Source of the DNA: Mobula birostris
Taxonomy: Eukaryota
Length of the DNA stretch: 64,000 bases
Assembly (NCBI RefSeq): GCF_030028105.1
Contig: NC_092391.1
Span: forward strand, 41,947,223-42,011,222
Direction of reading: 5' to 3'
Shown piece after piece: positions 7,800-63,587 of this stretch. Both the position numbers and the translations under genes were made by a program. Numbering within the stretch: the first letter of the stretch is position 1; each line of letters begins with the position of its first letter. Under the pieces are notes generated by a model. It ran no database searches. It worked only from the letters and a program-made list of their open reading frames with translations, and had not been told where the DNA came from.

Positions 7800-9332
7800 C
7801 AGGGCCTTGTAAAAGTATTCAACCCCTATCCTTTGTTCACATTAATGTGTATTACAACTAGGGATTTTGATCTACTTAGCTGAGAAATTTTATTTGTGAA
7901 TTATGTGCTCCTTTTTTTTTCCACAGTAGAGCCCAAAAACGGGGGGAAATTGTAAAGCATGAAAAACTAAAAATTCAAAACCTGAAATGTCAGCAGTTCA
8001 AAAGAATATTCATCCCCCTTGTTCAATACTTAGTTAGTTGTACCACCTCTTGAAGCTATTACAGCCAGTAGTCTTTTTTGGATAAATATTCATTAGCTTT
8101 GCACAACATAACGGAGCAAGATTTGCCATTTCCTCCTTGCAAATTGTTTAAGCTGTGCCAGGTTAGTTGGGGAGAGGTGGTAGTCATCAATCTTGAGGTC
8201 TTGACAAAGATGCTCGATTGGTTTAAGGACTCTTGACTGGGCCATTCAAAGACATCAATTTTCTTCATTTGAAGCCATTTCATGTTTACTCTGGCAGTGT
8301 GCTTTGGGCCATTGTCCTGCTGAAAGATGATCTTCCTCCCTAGTTTAAGCTTTCTGACCGAGGCTAGCATGTTTTTATCCAGAACCTCTCTGTATTTAGC
8401 AGCATTCATCTTCCCATCAATCCTGACCAGATTTCCAGTCCCTGCTGTTGAAAAGCATCCCCACAGCATGATGCTACCTTCACCATACTTTACAGTAGGG
8501 AATGGGTTTAACTAGTATTGAGGTCAAGAAGTTCCACTTTAGTCTAATCTGACCACAAGACCTTCTTCCACATCTTTACATTATCTTGCATATGACGAGG
8601 GAAGGATATTCTATCTTTAGCCAGGGCTTCTTTGCCACTCTTCCATAAATAGCCTTTTTGTGCGAGGCCTTAGAGATTGTGGAGCCGTGAACTTCATCTC
8701 CGGTTATAGCCGCTGACTTCTGCAGCTCACTCTGACTGGTGGCGTCACAATAGTCTCTCTTAGGAGTGCCCACAACTAGGTTAAGAGGAGTGGCCTAACC
8801 TAGGCAGTGTGGCTGCGGTTTCATATTTTTTTCCCACTTTTTCATAAATGGACTGCACTGAGCCCTGAGGTAGGCTCAGTGCCTTTGAGATGGTCTTGTA
8901 CCCTTCCCCAGATTTGTGCATCTCTATTATCATTTCCCTGACTTGTCTCAAGTGCTCTTTTGTCTCCATTTTGTTGGAAAATCTACCATACTGTTGGAAC
9001 TCAGAGAGAGGGGGTATTTATTCTTATGAATTAATTGAAAACAGGTGATCCTCCAGTTTTCTACATTAAAAGATTGGGTGAGTGGGTAAGGTAATACAAT
9101 AGCTTATAGCACCTAAGGAAAGTTAGCATAGTAATAACAAAGGAGGTGAATATTTTTTCAGCTTTACAATTTTTGTATTTTTAGTACATTGTTGATAGGT
9201 TTTGGAATTTTTATTTTGATTTGACGTGATGCACAGCGTTTTGTAGATTAGCTCAAAAAATCCTAAGTTTAGAAAATGAGACAGGGAATTGTGAGAATAG
9301 TTGTGGGGGCTGAATACTTTTTCAAGACACTA
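7800..9332 (-). mobile_element. Tc1/mariner DNA transposon, full length but frameshifted
   Basis: TA-flanked TIRs CAGGGCCTTGTAAAAGTATTCAACCCC / GGGGCTGAATACTTTTTCAAGACACTA. Transposase pieces from ATG 8969 (G.GYKTISKAL, MLWGCFS, FQQDNGPKH, WPSQ). Confidence 0.92.
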
Positions 9333-14143: not shown

Positions 14144-17100
14144 GTGAGCAGTAATACTTTGTCACTGTTCAGAGAAAGATCTGTAATGCTTTAACTTGGT
14201 AAAGCCAATGAACATTATTTCCTTATAATTGAACTATTACTGCTGTTCTAATGCAGCAAACATCTAATAGATGTACAACACAAAATAATCTGCAGATGCT
14301 GGGGTCAAAGCAACACTCACAACACGCTGGAGGAGCTCAGCAGGTCAGGCAGCATCCGTGGAAACGATCAGTCAACGTTTCGGGCCGGAACCCTTCGTCA
14401 GGACTGTAGAGGGAAGGGGCAGAGGCCCTATAAAGAAGGTGGGGGGAGGGTGGGAAGGAGAAGGCTGGTAGGCTCCAGGTGAAAAACCAGCAAGGGGAAA
14501 GATAAAGGGGTGGGGGAAGGGAGGCAGGGAGGTGATAGGCAGGAAAGGTGAAGAAAGAATAGGGGAAAACACAATGGGTAGTAGAAGGAGGCGGAACCAA
14601 GAGGGAGGAGGTAGGCAGCTGGGGGAGGGGGCAGAGTGACATAGGGATAGGAGAAGAGAGGGAGAGGGAATTACCAGAAGTTGGAGAATTCTATGTTCAT
14701 ACCAAGGGGCTGGAGACTACCTCGACGGTATATGAGGTGTTACTCCTCCAACCTGAGTTTGGCCTCATCATGGCAGTAGAGGAGGCCATGTATGGACATA
14801 TCTGAATGGGAGTGGGAAGCAGAGCTGAAGTGGGTGGCTACTGGGATATCCTGTCTGTTGTGGTGGACGGAGCGGAGGTGCTCGACGAAGCGGTCCCCCA
14901 ATCTGCGTCAGGTTTCACCGACGTAGCAGAGGCCGCACCGGATGCAATAAATGACCCCAACAGACTCACAAGTGAAGTGTTGCCTCACCTGGAAGGACTG
15001 TTTGGGGCCCTGAATGGTGGCAAGAAAGGAGGTGTAGGGACAGGTGTAGCACTTACGCTTACAGGGTAAGTGCCAGGTGGGAGATCCATGGGGAGGGATG
15101 TGTGGACCAGGGAGTCGCACAGAGACCAATCCCTGCGGAAGGCGGAGAGGGGTGGAGAGGGAAAGACGTGCTTAGTGGTGGGGTCCTGTTGAAGGTGGTG
15201 GAAGTTGCAGAGGATAATGTACTGGATCCGGAGGCCAGTGGAGTGGTAGGTGAGGACAAGGGGAACTCTGTCCCTGTTGTGGTGGCGGGAGGATGGGGTG
15301 AGAGCCGATGTGCGGGAAATGGAGGAGGTGCGGGTGAGGGCGTCATTGATGACTGCAGAAGAGAAACCACGATCCTTAAAGAAAGAGGACATTTGAGATG
15401 TCCTGGAACAGAAAACCTCATCCTTGGAGTAGATGTACAAGTTATTTTTATACTATGTTGGTACATATTTTTAGTGTGTATTTGTTTAAAAACAAGTAAA
15501 ATACTTTTTTGTCATGATTCTTATGTTGTGAAAATGTTAAGCTGCAATTAGACAATGTGGTAATAAGAAATATTAAAACTTATTTGTGACATGAAAAAGA
15601 ACTAGTCACTTATGGAATGTTTATTGGCTTCATGATCAAACAGAAGTTTGACTATTTCTACAAACTGCAAAGCACGATGCAGTCTGATACATCAAAGAGC
15701 TTACTGCGAATTTTGCTGCCATTGCACTTAGTCTGAGGTGTATTTGGAACTGATGATCAGGGGTCAGCCATTCCTATTTTGTCATCATCCAGTCTGGCTC
15801 TTTAAATTTATTTTAAATTAATGCAGCAAAGCATCTATAGATATGAAAGTTTATTTTCGGTTGCAACGCAGTAAAGGTAGGATTTCAGTAAAGAAACAGC
15901 TTTAAAATATTTCATTGTGGAGGAAAGCCATGCAAATATTGCAATGTTACCAATTTTTAAAAATATACATCACTTTTTTTTATTCCACGGAAAAACGGCA
16001 TTGTCATTGTAAAACAAAAACATTATGGATATGGAAATAATGTTTAAATGTCAATAGAGAAATTGGAAGTAATGGACAAAGACTTCATGATTTCAAATGC
16101 ACCCAGCACCTAACTTGCCCTGGTGACTCCAGTTTGTAAATCTGTGAAGTACACAAGGAGTGGATATGAATATATTTGGTTCACTGCTTTCATATGTATC
16201 ATAAATTCAGATTTATGCTCTAATGGAAGTGATTGTCAGTGTTGTAATGTGAACGGGAGAAGTACTGCAGCTACTGGATACTGAAGTGTTTTATTCAACA
16301 AAATGAGACCCTCTCGGAGGAAGAAGCCTGTTTGACTCAATATTACATGACATTTTGCATGCTAAACATCAAAGAAAGCAGGAGAATTCTATAATTACAA
16401 TGTATCTGCAATATTTTGAATTACATATAGTTTTCACACCTCCTCCTTCGCACCCACACGTTCCAGGCACCCAAAATGAATGTTAATCAGCATTGTCTGG
16501 TTTTCAATTTACTGGTGTCCACAACTCCAGGAAACTATTGTCCAGTGCTACATTTTAAATTTAATCTACGATCCATGTTCAGGTCTAAAGGTTTGTTGCT
16601 GAAGTTAATATTTGCTATATACTGTAATTCCAGAATACGCCCTAGCAGTCAGGTCAGTAGGGCTCCAGAGTTTGTGTGTAAATATTTGAATTACACAATT
16701 TAAGAATTTATGGAAAGTGATTGAACCCATTTGGATTTTTATGTTTACTGACTTTCTGTATAATTAATATAGTTCCTTAGATATTTGTGTGATGTAGTAA
16801 GTGGGAAACATCCAGTTCCTTGAGTCTTGGACAAGATGAAAAAGAAAGTGAATGGCTCTAGTAACGGAAACAATACTTTGAGAATTGTTTGCAGTTAGCA
16901 GTGATCATAAGCAGAGCATTGTGCAGCCAGGTTGGATAATCACCGAGAGGAACCTTGTTATACTGTATTTCCATATGTTATTAAATAAGAGATTAGTTAA
17001 TGGAGCAGGATAATATGTAATTAGTGAAAACTTTGTGTGCCCCGTATTTAAAACAAAATTACATTCCTAGCAATCAAATAACAGCTGATGAAGATGGTTA

Positions 17101-20100
17101 TTACATACTGGTTATCTGGCTTTTTTGATGTCTTTCTAACTATGGTGTTGAATTGATTCTATTTCTCTCTGTTCTAGAAACATGTGATTGTATTAATCTC
17201 ATCAAAGTTGCTGGAGAACGCAGCAGGCCCGGCAGCGTCTATTGGAAGAGGTACAGTTGACGTTTCGGGCCGAGACCCTTCGTCAGGACTAACAAAGGGT
17301 CTCGGCCCGAAACGTCGACTGTACCTCTTCCAATAGATGCTGCCGGGCCTGCTGCGTTCACCAGCAACTTTGATGTGTGTTGCTTGAATTTCCAGCGTCT
17401 GCAGAATTCCTCATGATTGTATTAATCTGTTTTCTTCTCTTTAGCTCCCAGATGGAGTGAATGTATCAAAAGAAGCCCGCAGTGCAATATCCCGAGCAGC
17501 TAGTGTTTTTGTTCTCTATGCAACTTCCTGGTAAGAAACACCACTTAGCAGCAAAGCCTATTGCCTTGAAGCTCTGTAACTCTACTATGTAATTTCCTTC
17601 AGTTCAAGAATTACTAAAATGACAGTCTTAATCTGTTGTGTTCTGAATTTTGTGCTCACGGAAATGAAAGAAGCTTTTGCACCTTCATTAATCCCTTGGT
17701 TCTGGAGAGCTTTCGAGGCTTCATTAAATCTTGGTAAACTTCCCGAATCTTTCAATAGAGCGTCAATCTCTTTAATATTAAAGAAGGATAAACATCCTGC
17801 TCAATGTGCATCTTATAGACCAATATCTTTACTAAATGTTGACTCTAAAATTTTTTCTAAGTTATTAGCGAACAGATTAGAAAAAGTACTTCCTTTTATT
17901 ATTTCGGAAGACCAAACGGGTTTTATTAAAGGTCGTTACTCTTTTTATAACATTTGCACACTGTTAAATATTGTTTATACCCCCTCACAAAATGTTCCTG
18001 AGTGTGTTATCTCTTTAGATGCTGAGAAAGCTTTTGGTAGAGTAGAATGGCCTTATTTATTTAAGATGCTTGAAATGTTTAATTTTACACAGTGACAAAA
18101 TTGGCAAACTGTTGGCTAATCAACTGAAGTCTAATTATGCTAAATCTCAAATTAATCAGATTTATAACCAAAATGACCGACTGATACTTGACCATGTGGG
18201 GATTAATCAAACTTTCTGTGATTTTTATTCTTCCTTATATCAATCAGAGTCTCCTCGAGATTCTAAATATATGAATGATTTTTTAGATAATCTAGACTTC
18301 CCTGAGATTTCACAGGATATGTCTTCTATGTTAGATACTCCCATTACCACGGATGAGATTAAGAATGTTATTTTCTCTATGAATTTGGGGAAAGGTCCTG
18401 GCCCTGATGGGTTTACCGTAGAATTTTATAAATGTTTCGCACCTTCATTAATCCCTTGGCTCTGTAGGGTTTTTGAGGCTTCATTAAAACTTGGTAAACT
18501 TCCTGAATCTTTCAATAGAGCGTCAATCTCTCTAATATTAAAGAAGGATAAAGATCTTGCTCAATGTGCATCTTATAGACCAATATCTTTATTAAATGTT
18601 GATTCTAAAGTTTTTTCTAAGTTATTAGCAAATAGATTAGAAAAAGTACTTCCTTTTATTATTTCGGAAGACCAAAGGGGTTTTATTAAAGGTCGTTACT
18701 CTTTTTATAACATTCGCACACTGTTAAATATTGTTTATACCCCTCACAAAATGTTCCTGAGTGTGTTATCTCTTTAGATGCTGAGAAAGCTTTTGATAGA
18801 GTAGAATGGCCTTATTTATTTAAGATGCTTGAAATGTTTAATTTTAGCTCGAAATTTATATCCTGGATTAAATTGTTATATCATTCTCCCGTGGCCTCGG
18901 TCCGTACTAGCTCTCTAAGCTCACCTTTTTTCCCTCTTTTTTGAGGTACTCGACAAGGTTGTCCTCTTAGTCCTTTATTATTTGATATTGCATTATAACC
19001 TCTTGCAATTGCCATTCGAGAATCTCCAAATATTACTGGGATAACTCGGGGCTTAAAGTCCCATAAAATATCACTCTATGCTGATGACTTACTTTTATAT
19101 ATTTCTAATCCTCAAAAATCCATCCCTGCTGTTTTAGAGTTATTAGCACAATTTAGTCTCTTTTCAGGTTATAAATTAAATCTTAGTAAGAGTGAACTTT
19201 TCCCGATTAATAAACAACTTCCCTTATATCATAACTTTCTGTTTAAATTGATTAATAATTATTTTTCATATCTTGGGATTAAAATTACTTGTAAACACAA
19301 AGATTTATTTAAGATTAACTTTTTACCCTGAATTGACCATATTATTCAACTTTCATCTAAATGGTTTCCTTTATATTTAACTTTGATTGGTCGTATTAAT
19401 GCAGTTAAGATGTTTTTTCTGCCAAAATTTCTATATATATTTCAGGCATTACCGATTTTTGTTCCAAAATCTTTTTTTGATAAAGTTGACTCAAAAATTT
19501 CTTCATTTATTTGGCAAAATAAAAACCTGAGACTGGGTAAAATACATTTACAGAAAACTAAGAGAGATGGAGGTTTAGCATTACCTAACTTTAGATTCTA
19601 TTATTGGGCAATCAATATTCGACATATGAAATTTTGGTTACTTGACCAGGATATACTATCCATTCCTAAATGGGTAGCATTGGAATTACAATCTGTTCAG
19701 GGCTATGCACTTGGCTCTATTTTAGGTTCCTCTCTTCCTTTTGATTTGAAACGCCTTAAACAGGTGTCTAACCCGATAGTTAAATATACCTTACGTATTT
19801 GGTTTCCAATTCAGAAAATTTTTTGATCTTAACCAATTTGGGCTAGCGATTCCTATTTTAGGTAACATATTTTTTCCTCCCTCTTTTACGGATTGTGCTT
19901 TTCAAATTTGGAAGACTAAGGGTATTTCACGGTTTTTGGATTTATTTTTAGATGGTTCCCTTATGTCTTTTGAACAATTATCTAATAAATATAATTTATC
20001 AAGAATACATTTTTTTAGATATCTACAAGTTAGAAATTTCCTAAGTACTATACTTTCTTCCTTTCCAATGCTTTCTCCTACATACATTTTAGATACTATA

Positions 20101-23100
20101 ATTAACCTTAATCCATGTCAGAAAGGTGCATCGGCTATTATTTATAATATTATTACGAAACTTAGGAAATCCATTTGATAAGATTAGGTCAAATTGGGAA
20201 CAAGAATTAGGATCTATTATTTCCGTGGATGACTGGGGGCAGATTTTACAATTAGTCAATACTTCCTCTATCTGTGTTAAACATTACCTAATTCAATTTA
20301 AAGTTGTTCATAGAGCACATATGTCCAAAGATAAATTAGCTTGCTTTTATTCTCATATTAATCCTTTTTGTGATAGATGTCTGGGGCAGATAGCTTCTTT
20401 AACTCATATGTTTTGGTCTTGTCCTACACTGGAAACTTTTTGGAGAGACATTTTTAATATTATCTCCAAGGTATTGAATATAGATATCTCTCCTCACCCT
20501 ATTACTGCTATCTTTGGACTACCAAAAATCTCCAGTAATCTTTCTCCTTCAGCCCGTAGAATGATTGCATTTCTTACTTTAATGGCGAAAAGATGTATCT
20601 TACAACATTGGAAAGAGCTTAATGCTCCAACTACCTTTTTTTGGTTTTCTCAGACGATATTATGCTTGAATTTGGAGAAAATTAGAAGCAATCTTTATGA
20701 CTCATTTAAATTTGAACAGACCTGGAGATCTTTTATTCAATATTTTCATTTAATGTAATATATACCCTTGGTTTTTTTTACTGTTTTTAATGGAGGTCGG
20801 GATTGAGGACGTGATTTTAAGTTTTTTAACTCTGTTTGGTTTCAAGTTAGCCCATTGCTTTGCTTTGCTTTTAGTTAGTTGCACGGTGGGTTTTTTTGGG
20901 GGGGGGGGGTTTCCCTTTTCTTTATTGATATATATAAAAATTAGTATACTATTATGTTACCTTGGTATGTTATGTTTAAATTACATTGTATTTTTTTTGT
21001 ATTAATATCTCCTGTAATTTTATTATATTCTAACAGTGTATTAGTGCCTATATGGCTTACCTTTTTGTATACTTATTCAATAAAAAGATTTAAAAAGAAA
21101 GAAAGAAATGTTTAATTTTAGCTCGAAATTTATATCCTGGATCAAACTGTTATATCATTCTCCCGTGGCCTCGGTCCGTACTAGCTCTCTAAGCTCACCT
21201 TTTTTCCCTCTTTTTCGAGGTACTCGACAAGGTTGTCCTCTTAGTCCTTTATTATTTGATATTGCATTATAACCTCTTGCAATTGCCATTCGAGAATCTC
21301 CAAATATTACTGGGATAACTCGGGGCTTAAAGTCCCATAAAATATCACTCTATGCTGATGACTTACTTTTATATATTTCTAATCCTCAAAAATCCATCCC
21401 TGCTGTTTTAGAGTTATTAGCACAATTTAGTCTCTTTTCAGGTTATAAATTAAATCTTAGTAAGAGTGAACTTTTCCCGATTAATAAACAACTTCCCTTA
21501 TATCATAACTTTCCGTTTAAATTGATTAATAATTATTTTTCATATCTTGGGATTAAAATTACTTGTAAACACAAAGATTTATTTAAGATTAACTTTTTAC
21601 CCTGAATTGACCATATTATTCAACTTTCATCTAAATGGTTTCCTTTATATTTAACTTTGATTGGTCGTATTAATGCAGTTAAGATGTTTTTTCTGCCAAA
21701 ATTTCTATATATATTTCAGGCATTACCAATTTTTGTTCCAAAATCTTTTTTTGATAAAGTTGACTCAAAAATTTCTTCATTTATTTGGCAAAATAAAAAC
21801 CTGAGACCGGGTAAAATACATTTACAGAAAGCTAAGAGAGATGGAGGTTTAGCATTACCTAACTTTAGATTCTATTATTGGGCAATCAATATTCAACATA
21901 TGAAATTTTGGTTACTTGACCAGGATATACTATCCATTCCTAAATGGGTAGTATTGGAATTACAATCTGTTCAGGGCTATACACTTGGCTCTATTTTAGG
22001 TTCCTCTCTTCCTTTTGATTTGAAACGCCTTAAACAGGTATCTAACCCGATAGTTAAATATACCTTACATATTTGGTTCCAATTTAGAAAATTTTTCGAT
22101 CTTAACCAATTTGGGCTAGCGATTCCTATGTTAGGTAATATATTTTTTCCTCCCTCTTTTACGGATCGTGCCTTTCAAATTTGGAAGACTAAGGGTATTT
22201 CACGGTTTTTGGATTTATTTTTAGATGGTTCCCTTATGTCTTTTGAACAATTATCTAATAAATATAATTTATCAAGAATACATTTTTTTAGATATCTACA
22301 AGTTAGAAATTTCCTAAGTACTATACTTTTTTCTTTTCCAATGCTTCCTCCTACATACATTTTAGATACTATAATTAACCTTAATCCATGTCAGAAAGGT
22401 GCATCGGCTATGATTTATAATATTATTATGAAACTTAGGAAAACTCCATTTGATAAGATTAGGGTAGATTGGGAACAGGAATTGGGGTCTATCATTTCCG
22501 TGGATGACTGGGGGCAGATTTTACAATTAGTCAATACTTCCTCTATCTGTGCTAAACATTCCCTAATTCAATTTAAAGTTGTTCATAGAGCACATATGTC
22601 CAAAGATAAATTAGCTTGCTTTTATTCTCATATTAATCCTTTTTGTGATAGATGTCCGGGGCAGATAGCTTCTTTAACTCATATGTTTTGGTCTTGTCCT
22701 ACTCTGGAAACTTTTTGGAGAGACATTTTTAATATTATCTCCAAGGTATTGAATATAGATATCTCTCCTCACCCTATTACTGCTATCTTTGGACTACCTA
22801 AAATTTCCAGTAATCTTTCTCCTTCAGCCCGTAGAATGATTGCATTTCTTACTTTAATGGCGAAAAGATGTATCTTACAACATTGGAAAGAGCTTAACGC
22901 TCCAACCACCTTTTTTTGGTTTTCTCAGACGATACTATGCTTGAATTTGGAGAAAATTAGAAGCGATCTTTATGATTCCTCACTTAAATTTGAACAGACC
23001 TGGAGATCTTTTATTCAATATTTTCATTTAATGTAATTTTTTTCCTTCTCTTTTTTGATCCATATTTATATACCCTTGTTTTTTTTTTTAACTGTTTTTA

Positions 23101-26100
23101 ATGGAGGTCGTGTTTGAGGACGTGATTTTAAGTTCTTTAACTCTACCTGTTTCCAAGTTAGCCCATTGCTTCGCTTTGCTTTTAGTTTAGTTGCACGGTG
23201 GGTTTTTTTGGGGTTTTTTTTCCGTTTCTCTATTGATATATATATATAAATTAGTATACTATTATGTTACCTTAGTATGTTATGTTTAAATTACATTGTT
23301 TGTATCACTTTTTTTCTGTATTAGTATTTCCTGTAATTTTATTATATTCTAACAGTGTATTAGTGCCTATATGGCTTACCCTTTTGTATACTTATTCAAT
23401 AAAAAGATTTAAAAAGAAAGGAAATGAAAGAAGCCAAGAAAGGGAATTTGCATTATTATGCTTTTCGTGATCTCAAGGCATCCAAACCACTATCAACGTC
23501 AAAAACTCACGGTTGAGAAAGATTACAGTATTAAACCTCTTTGACTTGAGTCTTCCTGTTTAGTCTTGCTCAGTGAGTAATTTTGTCATGGTAGAGCTGG
23601 ACTTTCTAGAAATTATATAGAGATTACTTGGACATTTCACATAAAATCCAACAATTAGACAGATTTCATGCCTTTCTTTGAAATTAATTCTAAACAAGGT
23701 TTTAATTCTAGAGAGCCTGCTGTGCAATCTTCTTATCCAATCCTCTATAGTTTCTTTGGTGTAAATGCATTTTATTTCATTGATTTCTATTCATTTCACT
23801 TGGGCATAATCATCTGTACATGACCAATTTACTAGTACTTTGTTTTACTCGCTTATCTCTTAAAACTCTAACCATTGACTGGCTTGTGTTTTTGAACTGG
23901 TGCTGCCAGACATTCAGACGCATAATCAAAACAGAAAGTGATGGAACTGTTCAACAGGCCTAACAACATTTGTGAGGAGAGAAACAGAATCTGTGTTTCA
24001 GTTCAGTGACCTTTCATGAAGCCATTATTTACTTGGAGGATTAAAGTACAAGCATCTATTGTACAATTTTTTTTAAAGTTAAATTTCTTCAATCCTTACT
24101 AAAGAATCTTCTTGCAAAGTTGAGAGCTGTCTCCATATTAGTGTGTTGCTGTAGGGCGTATTAAAATAATGCATGTCTTCACAGTGCAAATAATTTTGCA
24201 ATGAAGAGCAAGAGGAAAACACTGAGTGCCTCTGATGTGCTTGCAGCGATGGAAGAGATGGAGTTTGATCGCTTCATTACTCCACTGAAAGATGCATTGG
24301 AAGGTGAGAAGTTGTGACATACTGATCAGACTATTTAACTTATTAAGTTGCATTAGTTTTTGATACAAAGCCAAAGACAAGATCATTCTATATGTGTAAG
24401 TCTAAATACAGATTTGTCACATCTTAAACATTGACTGGCATGTGTTTTTGAACTGGTTCTGCCAGACATTCAGACGCATAATCAAAACAGAAAGTGATGG
24501 AACTGTTCAACAGGCCTAACAACATTTGTGAGAATAGTTGAGAATAGTGAGAATTTTTCCTGACACGAAAAAAATGGTTGAAGTGAATTGGGAGTTTACA
24601 TTGTTTAGTCATTTAGAAATGCTAAATCTAGTACCCCTACAATCATGTTTGTTTGCCTCTCAATCCAAGTTTGAACACTTCTTTATTTGATAGCCCACAT
24701 TTTCACTAGTTTTGTGTACTTGATGGGTAGCACAGTAGCATAGCAGTTAGTGCAATTCTTTACAGCTCCAGCAACCACTGATTGGGGTTTGATTTCCACC
24801 CCTGTCTATAAGGAGCTTGTATGTTCTCCCACAACCACATAGATTCCCCTCTGGGTGCTCTGGTTTCGTCCCATTTTCCAAAAACATATGGTTAGGATTA
24901 GTGAGTTGTGGGTGTGATAAATGTTGGCGCCAAAAGTATAGCAGCAATCCTCGGACTGCTGTTTGTTGACATAGGAGGTGCATTTCACTCTGCTTTGATA
25001 TGTATATAACGAATAGAGTTAATCTTTTTTTTAATGATTAGAGTGTAACAATGTGTTATTTCAGGTACTCAGATCAAAATGGGGTGCCATGGTAGCACCC
25101 AATGGTTAGTGGTTAGGGCAACACTATTACAGCTCAGGGCATTCAGAGCTTGGAGTTCAATTCTGGCGTCCTCTGTAAGGAATCACATGGGATTCCTCCA
25201 GGTGCTCTGGTTCTATCCCACAGTCCAAAAACATATCAGTTTGTAGGTTGGTTAGTAATTTGAGTAGACTGTTGGGCCAGAAAGGTTCGTTCTGCTAATT
25301 GCTTGTCATTTCAGAAACTCAATTGTGATGTGGGGAGGAAATCTCGTCACTGATTGGTTGCATGGTGAACTTTGTGCATTATGGTCTGGAATTTAGCCTG
25401 CATTGGCTTATAAATAGGATCAAGATCTACATGTTTGTTTGCAGAAAACCACACTTCTGGGAATTCTCTTGCATGTTGCCTTGGAGATTGAGAAGGGCAG
25501 AAATTCGACTGGACATCTCATGATGTCTCCTCGTATGGTGACGAAATATTTACATGTTAATTGCCAAGATCAGAGAACAACTCAACCCAACCAGGTTTTC
25601 ACACCTATAAAACAAAATGTCTGGATATAGAGTTTATCTAACCTGCTGCTTGTGTGGATTTATAAAACAATGTCTAAACACTAATGGCCTTGGAAGATGT
25701 GGAAGCAAAATGGGAAAATTAGAGCAGTGCCTACAGATTAAACCTCATAATCTTGAGCCTAAGCCCATGCTCAAATATGCATCTTGCATCATTGTGATTT
25801 TTTTTTTGAGCCAACACCAGATATAGTTTTCCAAGGCATTAAAACATACAGCTGTGAGAATAAATTTTGGAAGGAAGACTATTTCCAGTAAGTTGTTAGA
25901 AAAGTCATTAAGTATAAGTGATAGAAATCAAATGCCTTTTGTTGTTACATGGAATGTTTTTAAGAGTTTCCCAAATGTCCTTTTCCTGCTGTATATGACT
26001 GCATTTTCTTTAAACATGTTTTCTTTGTCTTATCGACTCTTACAATTACTGAAAACATTCTGGATAATTTCTGTTGCTCCACGTCAGCTTTGTAGTTAAC

Positions 26101-26681
26101 TTGCATTTTATGTAATTCTTCTGTCCTGTTTCTAATTCATTTTTTTATACTTGTACTATACACAATTAATTGCTTTCCTTCTTCACTGAGGCTTGAGTGA
26201 TCCAATTTTTGTGAATTGCTGATACCTGGCCAAAGTTTTCTGATGAAGGGCACAAGAGACTGCAGATGTTGGAATCAAGAGCAACAAACAATCTAATGGA
26301 GGAACTCAGCAGGCTGAGCATCATTTGTGAAGGGTTGGGAGAGAATTTGCATCAGGACGTGGTTTCAACCCACAACATTGAGTTCTTCCCACATGCACGG
26401 GGGCTGTCTGAACACTTAGATCCTCCAACAGATTTTGTTTCCAAAGGTTGCTGGTAATTGAAATCTAAAGTGATCCTTTTCCTCTCCCCACAGCTTACAA
26501 GCGAGAGCAGAGAGGAAAGAAAGAAGCTTCAGAACAGAAGAAGAAGGACAAGAAGCCTGAGAATGAGGAACATGACAAGAGTAAAGAAGATGAGAATGAG
26601 GAAGATACAGAAGAGTTAAAAATGGTGGAAGATGATGAGCAAAAAGAAGTTGAAAATGAGGAAGAGGATGTTGAAAACTGA
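14078..26681 (+). CDS. POLE3: DNA polymerase epsilon subunit 3 (CHRAC17), spliced CDS join(14078..14143,17445..17530,24185..24303,26494..26681), 152 aa
   Basis: Hand-spliced translation [111 protein letters not shown]...EEEDVEN*. Histone-fold protein with acidic tail. All introns GT-AG, phases consistent (66+86+119+188=459 nt). Confidence 0.97.
14279..15429 (-). mobile_element. 5'-truncated Penelope-like element (RT C-terminus + GIY-YIG endonuclease remnant + 3' end with hammerhead)
   Basis: Frameshifted ORF pieces [11 protein letters not shown] and [34 protein letters not shown] (GIY-YIG). 11-bp TSD TAGATGTACAA at 14268-14278 and 15430-15440. Confidence 0.88.
14369..14406 (-). ncRNA. Minimal type I hammerhead ribozyme motif in PLE 3' end
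   Basis: CAGUC CUGACGA A GGG UUCCGG CCC GAAA C GUU GACUG: stem I CAGUC/GACUG, conserved core, stem II GGG/CCC, palindromic ACGU stem III. Confidence 0.75.
16248..16450 (-). mobile_element. Probable LTR remnant with adjacent polypurine tract
   Basis: TGTGAA...TTCACA termini (16248-16438), minus-strand GAAGGAGGAGG directly abutting, minus-strand AATAAA inside. Confidence 0.45.
17200..17413 (+). mobile_element. PLE-derived hairpin mini-element (81-bp inverted arms + 3' tail)
   Basis: Arms 17200-17280 and 17295-17375 (3 mismatches). 15-bp TSD TGATTGTATTAATCT at 17185-17199 and 17414-17428. Confidence 0.9.
17255..17290 (-). ncRNA. Minimal hammerhead ribozyme motif
   Basis: AGUC CUGACGA A GGGUCUCGGCCC GAAA C GUC AACU (one stem I mismatch). 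Confidence 0.65.
17445..17530 (+). CDS. POLE3: POLE3 coding exon 2
   Basis: ttttcttctctttag|[28 protein letters not shown]|gtaaga. Confidence 0.97.
17675..23419 (+). mobile_element. Outer L1 LINE (5'-truncated ORF2, 17675-18087 + 21121-23419) interrupted by a second L1
   Basis: 15-bp TSD GGAAATGAAAGAAGC at 17660-17674 and 23420-23434. RT motifs [28 protein letters not shown]; C-terminal CxxC..HMFWSC; AATAAA and A/GAAA tail. Confidence 0.92.
18088..21104 (+). mobile_element. Inner L1 LINE (5'-truncated, same family)
   Basis: 16-bp TSD GAAATGTTTAATTTTA at 18072-18087 and 21105-21120. ORF2 from linker ([11 protein letters not shown]) to C-terminus, 3'UTR, AATAAA and (GAAA)n tail. Confidence 0.92.
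23873..24532 (+). repeat. 104-bp direct repeat (23873-23976 / 24429-24532) flanking POLE3 coding exon 3
   Basis: Copies differ at only 2 positions; 556 bp start-to-start. Confidence 0.9.
24185..24303 (+). CDS. POLE3: POLE3 coding exon 3
   Basis: ttcacag|[39 protein letters not shown]|gtgaga. Confidence 0.97.
24724..25290 (+). mobile_element. Two tandem degenerate V-SINEs (~24724-25030, ~25081-25290)
   Basis: tRNA-like heads and V-domain remnants. Confidence 0.65.
26494..26681 (+). CDS. POLE3: POLE3 last coding exon (acidic tail, TGA 26679-26681)
   Basis: cctctccccacag|[21 protein letters not shown]...EEEDVEN*. Confidence 0.96.
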
Positions 26682-27260: not shown

Positions 27261-28048
27261 CACACAAAATGCTGGAGGAACTCAGCAAGCCAGACAGCAT
27301 CTATGGAAAAGAGTAAATAGTCGACATTTTGGGCCATGACTCTTCATCAAGAGTGGAAAAGAAGGGGAGAAATTAGTAATAAGGTGGGGGGGACGGGAGG
27401 AAGAAGTGCAAGGTGGCAGTTGATAGGTGAAACCAGAAGAAGGGGAGGGGTGAAGTAACGAGCTGGGAAGTTGATTGATGAATGAGATAAAGGGCTGGAG
27501 AAGAGAATCTGATAAAAGACAGAAGACCGTGGAAGAAAGGGAAGGGGGAGAAGCACCAGAGGGAGGTGATGGGCAGGCAAGGAGATGGAGGTGAGCAAGG
27601 GAAACAGGAATGGGGAATGAAGAGAGGGGTGCAATTACTGGAAGTTTCTTTTCAACAAGAATTCAGTGAAACCCTCTCACTGCTCCCCGCCCCCACCAGT
27701 GACATCTGCTGCCCACTGGCTTCTACCTTCCAGTAAATGCACCCCCCCCCATTCCTGTTTCTCAGGAGCTCATTCCCACCCCCACCCCCCACCTTTCTTC
27801 CATGGTCTTCTGACCTATCAGAGTCCCCTTTATCTCTTTCACCAAACAACTTCCCAGCCCTTTGCTTCACCCATCACTTGCCACCTTGTACTCCTTCCTT
27901 CTCCACTTCCCTTCCAGTTCTGATGAAGGGTCTTGTCTGAAACCTTGACTGTTTAAATAATTCTATCCATGGATGCTGCCTGACCTGCTGAGTTCCTCCA
28001 GCATTTCGTGCACGTTGCTTTGGATTTCCAGCCTAACATTTTCTAATA
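27261..28048. mobile_element. Older PLE insertion made of two inverted ~390-bp 3' ends
   Basis: Purine-rich PLE 3' end (-) followed by a pyrimidine-rich copy (+) with degenerate CTGATGAAGGG..GAAA at about 27919-27945. Possible TSD CCAGAAAG(C/A)ACT at 27249-27260 and 28049-28060. Confidence 0.7.
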
Positions 28049-28746: not shown

Positions 28747-28947
28747 GCAACACATGCTAAATACTGGAGGAACTCAGCAGGCCAGGCAACATCTATGGAA
28801 AAGAGTACAGTAGACATTTTGGGCTGAAACCCTTCAGCAGAACATCGACTGTACTCATTTCCATAGATGCTGCCTGGCCTGCTGAGTTCCTCCAGCATTT
28901 TGTGTGTGTTGCTATGATTTCCAGCATCTGCAGATTTTCTCATTTAT
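28747..28947 (+). mobile_element. PLE-derived hairpin mini-element
   Basis: Inverted arms plus tail. 15-bp TSD TAGTGGG(T/G)AATAAGA at 28732-28746 and 28948-28962. Confidence 0.85.
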
Positions 28948-29038: not shown

Positions 29039-29156
29039 CTCACAACACGCTGGAGGAACTCAGCAGGTCGGGCAGCATCCGTGGAAATGATCGGTCAATG
29101 TTTTGGGCCGGAACCTTTCACTTTGACCCCAGCATCTGCAGAGTATTTTGTGTGTG
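29039..29156 (+). mobile_element. PLE-derived mini-element (inverted arm + tail only)
   Basis: 14-bp perfect TSD CAGACAATGCAAGA at 29025-29038 and 29157-29170; same subfamily as the 14279 element. Confidence 0.85.
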
Positions 29157-32130: not shown

Positions 32131-32793
32131 TCACAGATGTAGATACAAACCATAAAGATACTGCACCAGCATCTCTACTTACAGGATTGAAGACTGACAG
32201 ATGTCTACAGACGGAAAGCATTCTGACTTGTTTCACTCCTGGTATGGTAATTCCAATGTACAAAAACACAAAAGGCTACAAAGTAGTAGACTTGGCTGGT
32301 TCCATCACAGGTGCAGCTTCCTCACCAAGGACATTCACAAGAGGCAATGCCTTAGAAATGTGGCATTTGTCACCCACTACCACACTGCCCTCCTCAATGC
32401 TGCTGTCAGGAGCTGGAAGACTTGCACCTCAGTGTTCAACAAAAGCTTCATTCCCACTGCCATCAGATTCTTAAACAGTCCTGAAAAGCTTTAACTTTAC
32501 TTCAGACTGTTTATTTCCTCCAACCTGCACTGGATCTGTTTATGTATTTTGCATTTGAGTGTGTTATTTATGTTTGTCCATGTGACATATGCTGCTGCAA
32601 AAAGCTTATTTCCATAGTATCTATACCCTGGGTATTTACATCTATGATAACAACAAACAGACGAGCTTAGAACTTGGTCAAAACAAGTTAAATTTCTACA
32701 TCCAGAGCTAACAACAAATGTAATAGTCTATATACTGGAATAGACACCAGAGGAATAAAGACAATTGAAATTAGAAACGTTATCTCAAAAGAT

Positions 32794-32799
32794 TTTATT
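32794..32799 (-). terminator. RPL12 polyadenylation signal AATAAA
   Basis: AATAAA about 38 nt after the stop codon; short 3'UTR typical of ribosomal protein genes. Confidence 0.85.
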
Positions 32800-32836
32800 T
32801 TACTTTGCTGGGATCCTGATACCTGGCAGTTTCTCT

Positions 32837-40785
<7,949 letters not shown>

Positions 40786-41035: not shown

Positions 41036-41199
41036 TCAAAGTTGCTGGTGACTCGATTGTACTTAGGGTTCCCTTAGGGTCTTGGCCCGAAACGTCGACT
41101 GTATGTCGTCGTCCTAGAGATGTTACCTGGCCTGCTGCGTTCACCAGCAACTTTGATGTGTGTTGCTTGAATTTCCAGCATCTGCAGAATTCCTGTTGT
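41036..41199 (+). mobile_element. PLE-derived mini-element in RPL12 upstream promoter
   Basis: 15-bp perfect TSD TCACAAAATATCAGA at 41021-41035 and 41200-41214. 17-bp inverted arm ATCAAAGTTGCTGGTGA / TCACCAGCAACTTTGAT. Confidence 0.88.
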
Positions 41200-41619
41200 T
41201 CACAAAATATCAGAGCTCACTTCGCAATGATCTTGCTCGGTAGTGTAAAAGGGGCAAAGGGATAGAGGGTGGTGCGTATATGGGATGCCGGAATAAAGGG
41301 GTGAGGCAGGTACATTAACAACGTTTTAAGGACTGGGGGGGCGGGGAGCGGAAAGTGCTAGAGGAATTTAGCAGGTCAGGCTGTATCTATGGAGAAGAAT
41401 AAATATTGGATGTACCGGGGCGGGATCATTCATCAGGACAGGAAACGAGACACTTAGTGGACTGTCCGGACTATCATCTAGAGCCTCAACCAGAAAAGTT
41501 GGCTGTCCATTTCCCTCCATTGATGCTACTTGACCCGCTGAATCCTCCAATTCCCTTTTTTTTTGCCTGTTGCTCCAGACTGCAGTATCTGCATTCTCTT
41601 CCATCTTTCCTTACGTGGT

Positions 41620-42355: not shown

Positions 42356-44456
42356 TTTAGAAAGATTTAGAAGAATATGGGCAAATGAAACTAGCTTAGA
42401 TGGGCATTTTGGTTGGCATAAACTTCAGAAACGAAGGGTGACCAGAGCACTATGGCTGGAAGTATCTCAAAATAAAGCAACTGCAGATGTTTGCAATCTG
42501 AAATAAAGCAGAAAACGCTGGAAGTACCCGGCATCTCAGACCGTATGTGTAGAAAAACAAAGAGTTAAAGTATGAGGTGGAAAAATATCCTTCAACAGAA
42601 TCTTCCCTGTAATTTAAAACTAACCTGTTTTTCCCCCTTTTCCAGTTGCGATGAAAGATGTTTTACCTGAAACATTAACCCTGTTTCTGCCTGATCGGTT
42701 GAGTGTTTCCAGCATTTCCTATTTGTATGACCAGTGGAGTTTGATACAATTCAATCCCTTGCTCCTAGTTGTTCGAATTAAAGATGTGGATCTAAATGTT
42801 GGGGGTAGGAGGATGTATGATGAAGAAGATAGCAGATGATGCCAAAATTGGCTGCATGGTTGACCAGGAGGACAAAAGTCCTAGACTGTAGGAAAATTCG
42901 GATCATTTAGTCAGTCGGCAAAAGCATGGCAAATAAAATTTACTGTGGAGAATCGTGGGGTAATGCATTTGTGGAAATATCACAAGGCAAAGGAATATAC
43001 AATAGTGAGGGGGTATGGAGTGCTGTGAAGCAACTGATAGCTACGATATTTTAAAAGTAAAGGAAGGGTGATCAAAGCACATAGAGTATGTTTTATTTTA
43101 TTGCTAAATAGTTTTGCTCAACAGTTAAAAGGCACACAAGAGTGCTTTCCTTAATTAGCTGAAGCACAGTATGTAAAAGCAGGTGGGTTATCACGGCTTG
43201 GGTATGGCATGGAACAACTGGTTATTGTGTTAGGGTTGTACGTGGGCAGAAGGAATAGGGACCAGTGACCGTTTAGGTCAGTGAATCGGCAAGACCAGAG
43301 TTCAAGGCCTAGTGTTCAGGGTCCTGATACTGATGAGTCTACAGTTTGAGACCTAGTGTTTGGCAATCGGCTAGTCCTGTGATCAATTCCAAAGACCGAA
43401 GATCAATCAGAAGTCCGGAAGTTGAGGCCCGGTGGCTGGAACAAATCTCTGGAAGTCTGCTGGGGAAGTTCAATGTCCGCGAGTTCAAGTCCGCTGGAGG
43501 CTGAAGACATCCTGTCCTGAGTTTGGAGGACTGTGTATGTGCGTGGTCAGTGAGTGGGAGGGAGGGACTTGGTCATATGTGCCCGGTTGGTGGGTGGGAG
43601 GGGAGGAATGAGACTTGTTTTGCTGGTGTTGCTTTATCACTTGATACATTCTGCTTTAATTTGTACTCAGTGTTGTTCTGCTGAGCATTGCGGGCATACT
43701 GTATTATGTTGGCTCTGGAGTGTATGGCAAGCCTTCTTCCCCTGCCCCCCCCAGCACAACCTTAGGCATGTTGGTTGTGAATGCAAATAACATATTTCAC
43801 TGTAAGTTTCCCTGTACAGGTGATAAATAGGTCTGAATCTTGAATCTTAAAGTTGTGATTTCACTGGAATTCACGAGAGCGCGGAAGTGATTTGCAAGGA
43901 TACTGTCAGGACTGGAAGTTTATAGTTATGAATAAAGTATAACCAATGTCTATTTTGTTTGGAAGGGAGAGAGGGGACATATGTTGATGAAGAAGAGATT
44001 CCACAGATGTTGGAAATCCAGAGCGACAACACACACAAAATGCTGGAGCAACTCAGCAGGTCAGGCAGCATCTATGAAGACGGATAAACAGTTGACGTTT
44101 CCAGCCAAGAACGTTTATCAATACTTAATACCAGTGAAACCTTGTAACTTGGACCACACTAACAATATAACCTATAACTGAATTGTGACAACGGAGCTCT
44201 GAATCAGGTGCTTGCAGATAAGGACTAAGTTGGGTAGTTTTTTTTGACGTGATGGGACAGATGGCCTCCTGCCTAGTAAATTTTCTGTGATTCTATGCTC
44301 CTGTGATTTTCTGGTTGCAGTTGGCAGATAAAGATCGCGCTGTTTCGGATTGTTTTGTGTAACATAAGGGAAATGCCTTGAAATACTCAGCAGCTAATAC
44401 CGCAGCATCTGTGGAGGGTATTTCCAGTAATTGTTTTAGATTCCCAGTGCCTACAG

Positions 44457-44767: not shown

Positions 44768-47700
44768 GTGAGCAACGCAGCGGGGCCCACCCCCGGTCTG
44801 TCTCCCCGCTGTTTCCGCATCACTTTACCCCCCCCCCCCATCCTTCCCTGGGAAGTTTGCTCCGGGGGGAGGAGGTGGCTGCGCTTCCCTACCCCCCCCC
44901 CCGTTTCCCTAACGCTTAATCCCCATTAAATGTCTCCGATCTCCTCCCTGACAACAACCTGTGAACTTTCTTCGTTTCTCGAGCGAGGGAACTCTTCCCT
45001 CAAAACAAGACCAGGCGCCGGCTGTAATGGGGAGTAACGGCATATACTGTATTAGGTTGGATTGCGATAGTGGCCGCGGCAGGACTTTTGACGGGCAAGC
45101 GGTTTCCTGTCCACTTTTCTGATCGGGCTGCAAATTTAAATTCATACGTGTCAACTAACCTCATCTGCCAGTCGCCTTCTGTGGTGCCGTGGTTGCAAAT
45201 TACTCTCAGTATGAGGGAGGTTTACACACCCCGACTGCAGGAGTAATACAGGGCAACCAGCGTTTACCAGTTCAGCCATGGGTTTCTTCATTCTTCAACA
45301 TTCAGCCTTTGACAGTGCTCAGGCTGTGTGCAGGATTTCTCACTGTTTGCCTGATTGGTAATAATTATATCATTGTCCATTATTGCAGCAACACTATACG
45401 GAATGTATAGATTAAAATAATTCTGGTTATTTACTTCCAACGGGGTCGAGTGCTGCTGAGATACATGCTAGGATGCACTGGGATGCATCATCGGTGATGT
45501 AACCTGGAGTGATGGGTGTTTTCGGGTTCACTCTCGCCCAGCCGACCCAGCCAGGGTTGATCAGGTCCTGGCTGGTGTCCAAGCAGCCTCTGTGATGGTT
45601 CTGATCTTTTCTTTACAGCCCCTCTCATCCCTGTAGTGCCAAGGAGGGAGTAGGTTCTGCCCACCCAGCAGCCAACAAGACCTCTATGCCCCACCTCACA
45701 CTGTGCCCTCCACCGCTGCCTCTGGCACTGCTCTTCCTGGTGAAGTGACTGAGGCATCGTAGTGCATTCCAGAAGCCCAACCCAGTCTGAGTTTTTAAAA
45801 AAGACACCTACCTCTGACGTCTCCTAAACTTTCCTCCACTCACCATGCTTCATCAACGTTTGAGGAACAATCTTCGTGTCATGTGCTAGCATTTGGTAGT
45901 TTGCAAGATGGGCAAAATTTGAATATGCTCAAGATATAACACATTTCTTCCCACTTCAACAGGCCCGAGAAGCCGGTGCAGATGACATCCTGGACATTTC
46001 AAAGTGTGAGCTGTCTGAGGTAAGCTGTCACCATAATCAGCCCTTGTGGTTGGAACTGCTGGTTCCATTAGACAACTAGGCACTGACCAGTGATTTGGGA
46101 TTGTGTTCAAGAGCCGAGAGGTAATGTTGCAGCTAGAAAGGACCCTGGTCAGACCCCACTTGGAATACTGTGCTCAGTTCTGGTTGCCTCACTACAGAAA
46201 GGATGTGGAAACTATGGAAAGAGTGCAGAGGAGATTTACAAGGATGTTGCCTGGACTGACGGAGGATGAGAGGTGACCTGATAGAGGTGTATAAGATGAT
46301 GAGAGGCATTGATCGTGTGGCTAGTCAGAGGCCTTTTCCCAGGGCTGAAATGGCTAGCACGAGAGGGCACAGTTTTAAGGTGCTTGGAAGCAGATACAGA
46401 GGGGATGTCAGGGGTAAGTTTTTTACACAGAGGGTGGTGAGTGCGTGGAATGGGCTGCCGGTGACGGTGGTGGAGGGGGAAACGATAGGGTCTTTTAAGA
46501 GACTCCTGGATAGCTACATGGAGCTTAGAAAAATAGAGGGCTGTGGGTAAGCCTAGGTAATTTCTAAAGTAAGTACATGTTCGGTATAGCATTGTTTGCC
46601 AAAGGGCCTGTATTGTGCTGGAGGCTTTCTATGTTTCTGTGACCCTCCACGTTGGTGGGGTTGCATTAATACACAGTCTACTCAATTCTCTAGGAAAAAC
46701 TTGCCTTTCAATGGTTTCATCCATTAGACTTATCACACATAGTGCTCCTGCAAAAAGTGGTTTGATTTATAAGCAGTTCACTTGATTATCAGGTTACTTG
46801 AAGATAAATTTTGTTGAGACAATTTTCCTGCGCTTTGTTGAGTAGTGACACGGAATCCTTTCCATTCACCTGGGAGAACAGAAAAGAACCTCAGCTTAAA
46901 ATCTTAATTGCTTGGAAAGAAACATAGAAACATAGAAAATAGGTTCAGGAGTATGCCATTCAGCCCTTCGAGCCTGCACCGCCATTCAGTATGATCATGG
47001 CTGATCATCCAACTCAGAACCCTGTACCAGCCTTCCCTCCATACCCCCTGATCCCTTTAGCCACAAGGGCCATATCTAACTTCCTCTTAAATATAGCCAA
47101 TGAACTGGCCTCAACTGTTTCCTGTGGCAGAGAATTCCACAGATTCACCACTCTCTGTGTGAAGCAACACACATCAAAGTTGCTGGTGAACGCAGCAGGC
47201 CAGGCAGCATCTCTAGGAAGAGGTACAGTGGACGTTTCAGGCCGAGACCCTTTGTCAGGAGTCCTGATGAAGGGTCTCGGCCTGAAATGTCGACTGTATC
47301 GCTTCCTAGAGATGCTGCCTGGCCTGCTGCGTTCACCAGCAACTTTGATGTGTGTTGCTTGAATTTCCAGCATCTGCAGAATTCCTGTTGTTTACTATCT
47401 GTGTGAAGAAGTTTTTCCTAATCTCGGTCCTAAAAGGCTTCCCCTTTATCCTTAAACTGTGACCCCTCGTTCTGGACTTCCCCAACATCGGGAACAATCT
47501 TCCTGCACCTAGCCTGTCCAATCTCTTTGCAGTTTTATACATTTCAATAAGATCCCCCTTCAACCTTCTAAATTCCAGAGGAGTATGAGCCTGGTCGATC
47601 CAGTCTTTCATCATATGAAAGCCCTGCCATCCCAGGAATCGATCTGGTGAACCTTCTTTGTACTCCCTCTATGGCAAGAATGTCTTTCCTCAGATTAGGG

Positions 47701-61890: not shown

Positions 61891-62559
61891 TTCATCGTAC
61901 AGCATTGAAACAGGCACTTAGGTCCAACTCAGCCAAGGTGCCTTACATTTGACTGCATTGAGCCCACATCTTTGTAAACCTTTCCTGTCTTGAACCAGGC
62001 CAAATGTCTTTTTAATACTGCAGTTGTACCCAACCGTACCATTCCCTCTGGCAGCTCATTCCTTTTACACATCACCTTATGCGTGGAGAAAACAGCATCT
62101 CAAAGCCCCTTCAAATCTTATCCCCTTTCACATTAAGCCTATACCCTCTAGTACCCCAGGAGAAAATGATTGTGACTGTCCCCTCCTCGTAATTTTATAA
62201 TCCTCTAGAATAGCAAATCTCAGTTTTTGTGCAGAAACTGCGGGAGGAAGGTGGCTGGACAATAACATATCACTTAATTAGAAAAAGGGTAAGGTTCTGT
62301 TTGGATCCCAATTGGCATGGTGAAGTGCGCCAATAGCATCTTGTGTGGAAAAGCTCAGCAGGGGTGTTGTCTGTCTAAAACGGATATGGTCAAGTGTTGT
62401 GGTAGTAGCAGGCAACCTGTTGGAATGGATTTCCATTTTGAAGCTGCTATGGGTAGGAATGGTAGATTTTATAGGAAGGATCATCAAGAATTAGATATTT
62501 CAAAATGTTTCAGGAGAGAACTCCAGGATCTGGAGCCAGGATGGCTGAAGTTTCAGTTC

Positions 62560-63476: not shown

Positions 63477-63587
63477 ACACTCACAACACGCTGGAGGAAC
63501 TCAGCAGGTCGGGCAGCATCCGTGGAAAAGATCGGTCGATGTTTCGGGCCAGAACCCTTCGTCAGGACTGTAGAGGGAAGGGGCAGA
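63477..63587 (-). mobile_element. PLE 3' end fragment with hammerhead motif (63533-63570)
   Basis: CAGUC CUGACGA A GGGUUCUGGCCC GAAA C AUC GACCG on the minus strand. Confidence 0.78.

Follow-up and report, generated by a model that had tools for sequence, protein, structure and literature searches.

Penelope-like elements (PLEs) that carry an endonuclease (EN+ PLEs; Penelope/Poseidon, Neptune, and Naiad) insert with an inverted copy of their pseudo-long terminal repeat (pLTR) and with a tail of 30-40 nt on one side only (PMC8557442, PMC3846280, PMC2377424). Palindromic junctions have already been published for these elements, as has unrelated sequence between solo pLTRs with target-site duplications (TSDs) (PMC8557442, PMC3846280), and the accessible text of PMC8557442 calls the origin of the tandem and inverted structures and of the tail undefined. 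Biochemical work on PAc, a Poseidon element of Anolis, has shown that the purified protein cuts and extends both target strands in vitro, that reverse transcription starts at 2 sites bracketing the tail, and that an uncleaved RNA serves as the template; a dimer is predicted (PMC11167929). The main text of that study explains the tail but not the inversion, and inverted copies and TSDs are not discussed. In L1 elements, both sides of a break can prime on one RNA, which results in an inversion (twin priming; PMC2246262). Here, we describe a group of very small PLE-derived insertions in a stretch of 64,000 nucleotides of the Mobula birostris genome (contig NC_092391.1, positions 41,947,223 to 42,011,222, forward strand; hereafter, the window), centering on a 214-bp hairpin at 17200-17413.

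The window contains 7 TSD-bounded insertions of PLE 3'-terminal sequence, each 82-229 bp long, which we refer to as minis. We conclude that they derive from a PLE, most likely of the Neptune type, and behave like twin-primed PLE insertions. They are probably dead-on-arrival by-products of that element, formed anew at each insertion by priming from the 2 ends of the break.

Anatomy and source of the mini insertions

The focal element at 17200-17413 is flanked by a perfect TSD of 15 bp (17185-17199 and 17414-17428, +; 0 mismatches). It begins with an inverted, tail-less PLE terminal arm of about 91 nt (17200-17290, -), which contains an antisense minimal hammerhead ribozyme (HHR) and has its inner end at -2 to -4, with arm positions numbered throughout from the first C of the HHR core. 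The direct arm (17289-17375, +) is identical to the inverted arm at 82 of 87 positions; 2 G>A changes are present in its HHR core, and the 5' strand of helix I is mostly gone. A PLE tail of 38 nt (17376-17413, +) completes the insertion. The hairpin folds with a z-score of -24.8, and none of 200 shuffles was equally good.

Two other minis also have 2 long arms. The copy at 47165-47393 (+; subfamily A, 229 bp), within a CR1-like long interspersed nuclear element (LINE), is a near-perfect hairpin with a 1-nt loop, a 36-nt tail, and a 15-bp TSD with 1 mismatch, and its direct arm carries a nearly intact minimal HHR. In the copy at 28747-28947 (+; subfamily C, 201 bp; TSD of 15 bp, 1 mismatch), the inverted arm reaches to about -3, and the direct arm starts at +23 and is followed by a 35-nt tail. 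A long inverted arm with essentially the tail alone was found twice: at 29039-29156 (+; subfamily B, 118 bp; TSD of 14 bp, 0 mismatches), where the inverted arm of 81 nt does not overlap the other piece, and at 49837-49974 (-; subfamily C, 138 bp; TSD of 13 bp, 2 mismatches, 9-bp exact core), within a repeat resembling short interspersed nuclear elements (SINEs), where an inverted arm of 87 nt overlaps it by about 7 nt. The mini at 41036-41199 (+; subfamily A, 164 bp; TSD of 15 bp, 0 mismatches) is made up of a 16-nt inverted arm, a 24-nt filler, a direct arm from +8, and a 43-nt tail. The smallest, at 58287-58368 (+; 82 bp; TSD of 14 bp, 1 mismatch), is one tail-less arm with the PLE sense on the + strand. 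In the filler at 41052-41075, 8 nt recur from a stretch that overlaps the beginning of the direct arm, as in a templated end-joining insertion.

An earlier note on this stretch had listed these insertions, 49837 tentatively, and its coordinates and sizes of 82-229 bp proved accurate. The uniform plan of inverted arm, direct arm, and tail that it described holds for 3 of the 7 copies (17200, 28747, and 47165), while the others are short-armed with filler, reduced to arm and tail, or single-armed; its statement that the minis consist only of PLE sequence likewise fails for the filler of 41036. The inverted copy does lack the terminal tail, as claimed, in all 6 two-armed minis, each of which has exactly one tail (35-43 nt in the 4 two-armed minis measured directly). 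Pairwise identities also bear out the presence of at least 3 subfamilies, with 83-95% within A, 91-94% among copies of B, 79-92% among copies of C, and 66-83% between subfamilies.

The TSDs differ in sequence and measure 14-15 bp in 6 minis, as the note had proposed for all, and 13 bp in 49837. Their scores were compared with those of 3000 random intervals of matched lengths, excluding regions with PLE matches and a large tandem duplication. None of these intervals reached the scores of 17200, 28747, 29039, 41036, or 47165; 1 of 3000 did so for 58287 and 17 of 3000 for 49837. The pre-insertion state could be seen for 47165, the target of which is single in 2 CR1-like paralogs, and the target of 49837 is single in 1 SINE-like paralog. 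For the remaining 5 sites, no host paralog was found within the window.

The terminus shared by the minis also ends a 5'-truncated, frameshifted PLE copy of 1153 bp (14277-15429, -; 11-bp TSD), which comprises the thumb region of the reverse transcriptase (RT), a CX3CX2C linker, a GIY-YIG nuclease, a pyrimidine-rich 3' untranslated region, an HHR, and a tail. The arm of 29039 is 91% identical to the terminus of this copy. A second coding fragment (62558-63190, -; no significant TSD) contains the C-terminal part of GIY-YIG and ends in a tail-less terminus. Because the terminus of the minis ends a fragment that encodes the thumb, zinc finger, and GIY-YIG domain, we regard their PLE origin as virtually certain; with long TSDs of differing sequence, the PLE source and the retrotransposition put forward in the note both stand. 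The 5' junction of the long copy (15410-15440) overlaps its 11-bp TSD by a few element-like bases, which suggests that microhomology joining shortened this TSD.

A homolog search with the 87-aa piece encoded at 14911-15171 (-) returned 3 proteins from 48 candidates, with 76-85% identity over 60% of the query. All 3 come from the rays Hypanus sabinus and Mobula hypostoma, consistent with the suggested cartilaginous-fish host. In tblastn, the 14277 copy was 60-82% identical to ray proteins bearing GIY-YIG, and both coding fragments align to the homologs (P0001-P0003) with E-values down to 1e-97. The homologs match the Pfam GIY-YIG family at E-values of 5e-4 to 2e-3, weaker than the curated cutoff, and none of the 4 window PLE fragments matched Pfam. 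A cysteine pair was seen inside the GIY-YIG motif, where the window copy has a small deletion, and the CX3CX2C zinc-finger linker precedes the nuclease in 14911-15171 (-) as well as in the homologs. P0002 and P0003 contain YxDD-like motifs upstream, which were read by eye and gave no Pfam RT match; the RT core is missing from the 64-kb window. Neptune and Nematis have a CX2-5CxxC linker between RT and endonuclease, which Penelope/Poseidon do not, according to the accessible text of PMC8557442, and the source is assigned to one of the former two because of its CX3CX2C linker. Neptune is favored over Nematis, since Neptune and Poseidon are the only PLE clades reported for the vertebrates surveyed in the accessible part of bioRxiv 10.64898/2026.07.22.740005. 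A Neptune-type PLE is, on these motifs, our preferred candidate for the source.

The arms contain a minimal type I HHR with helix I, a CUGAnGA core, an extra A, helix II, GAAA-C-G-U-H, and a palindromic helix III. The last of these, and an extra nucleotide ahead of helix II, are also described for the minimal type I hammerhead of PLEs (PMC4209133). The expected pairing is present in 73% of cells, compared with 19-45% when slid. The minimum-free-energy fold of 14355-14410 forms both helices, with a non-significant z-score of 0.07, and single-arm RNAs fold no better than shuffles (z-scores of -0.79 to 0.74). An Rfam scan returned no hammerhead family and 3 sub-threshold miRNA matches, which represent chance hairpins or repeats; the focal hairpin gives a sub-threshold match to a miRNA family. 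The features of EN+ PLEs found here are a GIY-YIG domain with 2 cysteines, a minimal type I hammerhead in the pLTR, and an inverted copy with one tail and a variable TSD.

A proposed two-primer mechanism on one RNA and competing explanations

The anatomy of the minis can be accounted for by 2 primers, a mechanism that we consider reasonably likely. The GIY-YIG nuclease would make a staggered cut with 3' overhangs of 14-15 nt, a geometry read from the observed TSDs. Both 3' ends would prime reverse transcription, probably on one RNA, one of them at the end of the tail and the other 35-43 nt upstream, in a UG-rich tract. Extension from the upstream primer would usually halt at the hammerhead's 5' edge. 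The tail primer may stall at the position of the other primer, giving 29039 and 49837, displace the first cDNA partly (28747) or fully (17200 and 47165), or overtake a short first cDNA (41036); in 58287, the upstream product alone would have survived. Joining of the cDNA ends through 0-3 nt of microhomology or templated filler would then leave TSD, inverted tail-less arm, direct arm, tail, and TSD.

Priming from both overhangs of a staggered cut gives the order TSD, antisense arm, sense arm, and TSD, as observed. In 3 of the 6 two-armed minis, the inverted arm reaches beyond the direct arm (28747, -3 versus +23; 29039, +6 to +86 versus +92 to +124; 49837, +6 to +90 versus about +84 to +125), which argues against copying by fold-back; in 47165 and 41036, the direct arm does contain it, and 17200 is marginal. 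The presence of exactly one tail in 6 of 6, for which simple arithmetic gives P = 1/64 if sites were chosen independently, suggests that both primers sit on one RNA. The tails of 35-43 nt are close in length to the 30-40 nt of the PLE tail (PMC8557442) and to the gap between the PAc start sites (PMC11167929), and by analogy, the two-start-site scheme of PAc may be carried over to the minis. The 2 pieces of 29039 are separated by 6 nt, which agree at 5 positions with the final 6 nt of the target, and the tail piece begins immediately after; this match resembles L1 twin priming (PMC2246262).

In all subfamilies, a stem of 7-8 bp (47310-47375, +, and equivalents) forms between the tail and the sequence behind the hammerhead, with the upstream start site inside it. 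Nearly all of the 8 arms that bear a tail retain this stem, with no two-sided changes. A CCAGC motif also precedes both start sites, its copies 28-31 nt apart. Either the stem or the motif could be a candidate binding signal for the enzyme.

Several points weigh against two-ended priming. Only 7 minis from one 64-kb window of Mobula birostris are available, of which 47165 fits fold-back equally well, 41036 fits a template jump, and 17200 deviates by just 2-4 nt. Microhomology at the priming sites is weak, adding up to 11 nt across the 7 sites (P = 0.02-0.18, by base-match rate; the value of 0 for 17200 was assigned by eye), and the exactly-one-tail count may partly reflect ascertainment. The in vitro reactions of PAc, from a different clade, showed no strand bias in the start site (PMC11167929). 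Furthermore, the arms of a larger hairpin at 27261-28046 differ by 106 gap columns, which misfits one RNA template if it arose in a single event, covariation in the hammerhead is no better than in shuffles (102-287 of 500), and the junctions of 17200 and 47165 are a near-recurrence, only 3 nt apart.

The main rival is fold-back or template switching, in which a tail-primed cDNA truncates and copies itself in reverse, and the asymmetry arises by later deletion at the center of the palindrome. Self-priming has been proposed for palindromic PLE junctions (PMC3846280), and the near-perfect palindromic junctions of 47165 and 17200, with loops of 1-2 nt, look as this model would have them; private variants common to both arms are predicted by it as well. 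We nevertheless consider it unlikely. Besides the 3 copies in which the inverted arm lies outside the direct arm, each of 29039 and 49837 would call for a deletion that ends no more than about 8 nt from the tail boundary, and 58287 is a lone tail-less arm with a 14-bp TSD. Fold-back also offers no reason why the copy should stop 35-43 nt short of the end every time. The note had offered truncation by a template-switching RT as one of 2 alternatives; taken as fold-back on the first cDNA, such switching misfits half of the two-armed copies, and random truncation may be wrong too, as the inner ends cluster (see below).

The second alternative of the note was a self-propagating hairpin, that is, a non-autonomous master or a retrozyme-like circular RNA that is copied as a unit by the PLE enzyme. 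The high density of minis (7 TSD-bounded copies in 64 kb), the close agreement (within 3 nt) of the junctions of 17200 and 47165, the presence of a minimal HHR, and the descent of retrozymes from pLTRs (bioRxiv 10.64898/2026.07.22.740005) would all be in keeping with such an element. A propagating unit should show a recurrent identical junction, however, and none was found when the arm-arm junctions of the 7 window copies were compared: both inner and outer ends differ in 7 of 7. Even in the closest pair, 17200 and 47165, the junction differs by 3 nt, the left end by 9 nt, and the tail end also. Over 87 aligned positions of this pair, 4 variant sites are common to both arms of one insertion and none goes by side, whereas a hairpin copied as a unit would show variants by side and not by insertion, barring gene conversion between the arms, which could mask side-specific variants. 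We take this as an argument for de novo formation at each insertion, which we hold to be highly probable for the 7 copies, and the self-propagating half of the proposal becomes very improbable. The minis moreover fall into 3 subfamilies, one of which is common to a coding copy, and they are all head-to-head or single, while retrozymes require head-to-tail tandem units with a complete HHR (bioRxiv 10.64898/2026.07.22.740005; PMC7229834). An HHR-cleaved RNA was rejected as the template, as most arms continue past the predicted cut (at about +27) and have their inner ends 17-31 nt upstream of it.

Mobilization by a DNA transposase as miniature transposable elements with inverted repeats (MITEs), to which the small size, the long inverted arms, and a fragment at 8059-8511 (-; no Pfam match) that we take to be a Tc1-like transposase might point, can be dismissed, since the repeat is non-terminal with a 35-43-nt tail at one end, the ends vary among copies, the TSDs of 13-15 bp differ in sequence, the sequence originates at the 3' end of a retroelement with a GIY-YIG nuclease, and BLAST with the focal element finds nothing near the transposase fragment. 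The short fixed TSD and matching transposase that the note had named as evidence against a PLE origin were not seen.

The inner ends of the arms are clustered at one position. In TSD-bounded insertions, 9 of the 16 arms have this end at -4 to +10, no more than 14 nt from the 5' edge of the hammerhead; this zone accounts for 117 of the 3033 copied bases (binomial P = 2e-9), and in the minis alone the count is 9 of 13 (P = 2e-8). The zone was picked post hoc, coordinates were typed in manually, and the arms of an insertion are not independent of each other, so that these values indicate strong clustering only. Three solo arms without TSD (2018, 40209, and 43998) stop in the same zone. In longer copies, a pyrimidine tract ending in CAG or CAC is found just upstream, and in 3 of them a TTAT motif precedes it by about 28 nt. 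Set beside the consensus motifs for branch points and splice acceptors and for TATA boxes and initiators, these motifs read either way, as a putative branch point and acceptor or as a putative TATA-like box and initiator. A search of the junctions by eye for spliced-exon sequence gave nothing convincing. In Drosophila virilis, the intron of Penelope extends to the 5' end of helix I (PMC4209133) and lies 46 nt after the start site (PMC2377424).

The clustering suggests run-off at a defined RNA 5' end. PLE transcripts have a pLTR at either end, and their RT initiates at internal positions, so that a primer on the 5' copy would reach the end of the template after about 100-130 nt, giving sizes as seen. 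In its full form, this reading would make the minis complete run-off copies rather than random truncations, place the RNA 5' end at the 5' edge of the hammerhead, use either the 5' pLTR of the mRNA, primed internally, or a pLTR-only, SINE-like, non-autonomous RNA of about 130 nt as the template, and have a dimer prime both strands about 40 nt apart, with hairpins forming de novo; we offer it tentatively, as it remains rather doubtful. Stalling of the RT at the hammerhead or at a C-rich tract, or short truncated source loci, are possible explanations of the clustering as well. Should run-off be correct, the genomes of cartilaginous fishes would preserve a very large fossil archive of where PLE transcription starts, how the cut is staggered, and how the two-primer cycle proceeds.

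Genomic setting and other elements of the window

The focal insertion is intronic and lies 31 nt upstream of an exon of a POLE3/CHRAC-like histone-fold gene (17414-17528 and 24186-24302, +), for which we assume the name POLE3. The first exon matches Drosophila CHRAC-14 (E-value of 1.9e-5), and the second matches NF-YB-type folds. Because the TSD duplicates the likely branch-point region, the splice acceptor of this gene remains intact. A direct duplication of 108 bp (23869-23976 and 24425-24532) surrounds the second host exon, with a faint match to the PLE terminus in both copies.

A profile scan of the whole window gave 38 matches at E-values up to 10, of which 18 exceed 70 bits. Among the further PLE copies, the large hairpin at 27261-28046 (+; 786 bp) has the same anatomy as the minis, with arms of about 390 bp that reach the stop of the open reading frame (ORF). 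Its possible TSD of 12-14 bp is uncertain, with 17 of 3000 null intervals matching the score. Each arm stops no more than about 10 nt from the ORF stop, next to a GTAA motif that resembles a splice donor; the spacer measures 80 nt, and the arms differ by many indels, as if 2 templates or 2 events were involved. With this copy, the sizes form a continuum of 82-229, 786, and 1153 bp. Solo copies include a tail-less terminal arm of subfamily B (63466-63587, -) and an arm with tail that ends at about +6 (40209-40333, -). The regions 41352-41600, 42479-42730, and 26251-26440 are older, diverged two-armed candidates with a one-tail plan, and were excluded from the counts as their alignments are weak. 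None of the 8 solo or older copies tested had a significant TSD (2018, 40209, 43998, 63466, 62558, 26259, 41352, and 42479).

LINE fragments, which we take to be L1/Tx1-like, are duplicated in tandem at 17675-23423 (+), with about 5 kb matching itself and RT similarity at 18046-18777. CR1-like LINE copies are present at 47398-49071 and 54516-57310 (-), and a 405-aa open stretch at 55038-56255 matches RVT_1 with an E-value of 4.5e-33. The strand opposite the open frame at 32692-33138 may contain an ALAD exon. ARAGORN found no tRNA genes in the window.

Comparison with known systems

The value of the minis may lie in the insertion mechanism that they record. They are so short that a single read can cover the 2 priming sites together with the junction and the TSD, and at a density of about one TSD-bounded copy per 9 kb in the window, scanning a genome could tell two-ended priming apart from fold-back and show where the RNA 5' end lies. 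If only ordinary truncation is involved, the minis are a tidy but expected by-product of PLEs. Automated tools could file them as MITEs or as miRNA-like hairpins. In the literature searched, with Repbase, Dfam, most subscription papers, and supplements outside its scope, we found no account of ORF-free PLE hairpins of 100-230 bp that have TSDs of 14-15 bp, of an inner-end hot spot, or of PLEs explained by twin priming. Stray copies were also sought in bacterial and archaeal genomes by exact motif, with 0 matches. The Eulor/UCON hairpin repeats were considered as a possible precedent. UCON13 is listed as Penelope in PMC5753468, the accessible part of which gave nothing beyond this listing.

Like canonical EN+ PLE insertions, the minis have an inverted, 5'-truncated copy on the 5' side, a tail at a single end, a palindromic junction, a TSD, and an HHR in the pLTR, but they contain no ORF between the repeats, and the whole insertion measures 82-229 bp. 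Their TSDs of 13-15 bp compare with 8-10 bp in Adineta PLEs. The forms with only an inverted arm and tail, and the inner-end hot spot, have no counterpart in the accessible descriptions of canonical insertions (PMC8557442, PMC3846280, PMC2377424). In Schistosoma mansoni, pairs of minimal hammerheads on opposite strands, 100-700 bp apart, were attributed to truncated PLEs; the minis share with these the minimal type I HHR, the extra nucleotide before helix II, the palindromic helix III, and the opposite strands (PMC4209133). In contrast to these pairs, the HHRs of full hairpins abut at the junction here, or one is lost, and the accessible text of PMC4209133 gives no analysis of TSDs or junctions.

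The resemblance to metazoan non-LTR retrozymes (LTR, long terminal repeat) extends to small size, lack of coding capacity, a type I HHR, a relation to pLTRs, and long TSDs when present (PMC7229834; bioRxiv 10.64898/2026.07.22.740005). Retrozymes, as far as described, are head-to-tail repeats with canonical HHRs and circular RNA, whereas the minis are head-to-head or single arms with minimal HHRs. Twin priming of L1, which is reportedly the work of Ostertag and Kazazian in 2001, usually gives inversions without duplication; in the minis, by contrast, the second site would lie at a fixed distance of about 40 nt from the end, and the first cDNA could continue past it, duplicating sequence. Two of them, 29039 and 49837, have the form of an L1 twin-priming product (PMC2246262). 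PAc belongs to another clade and starts in an AC-rich RNA loop, whereas the sense RNA of the minis is UG-rich at both starts; like PAc, the minis would have 2 start sites that bracket the tail, both strands cut and extended, and an uncleaved RNA as the template (PMC11167929).

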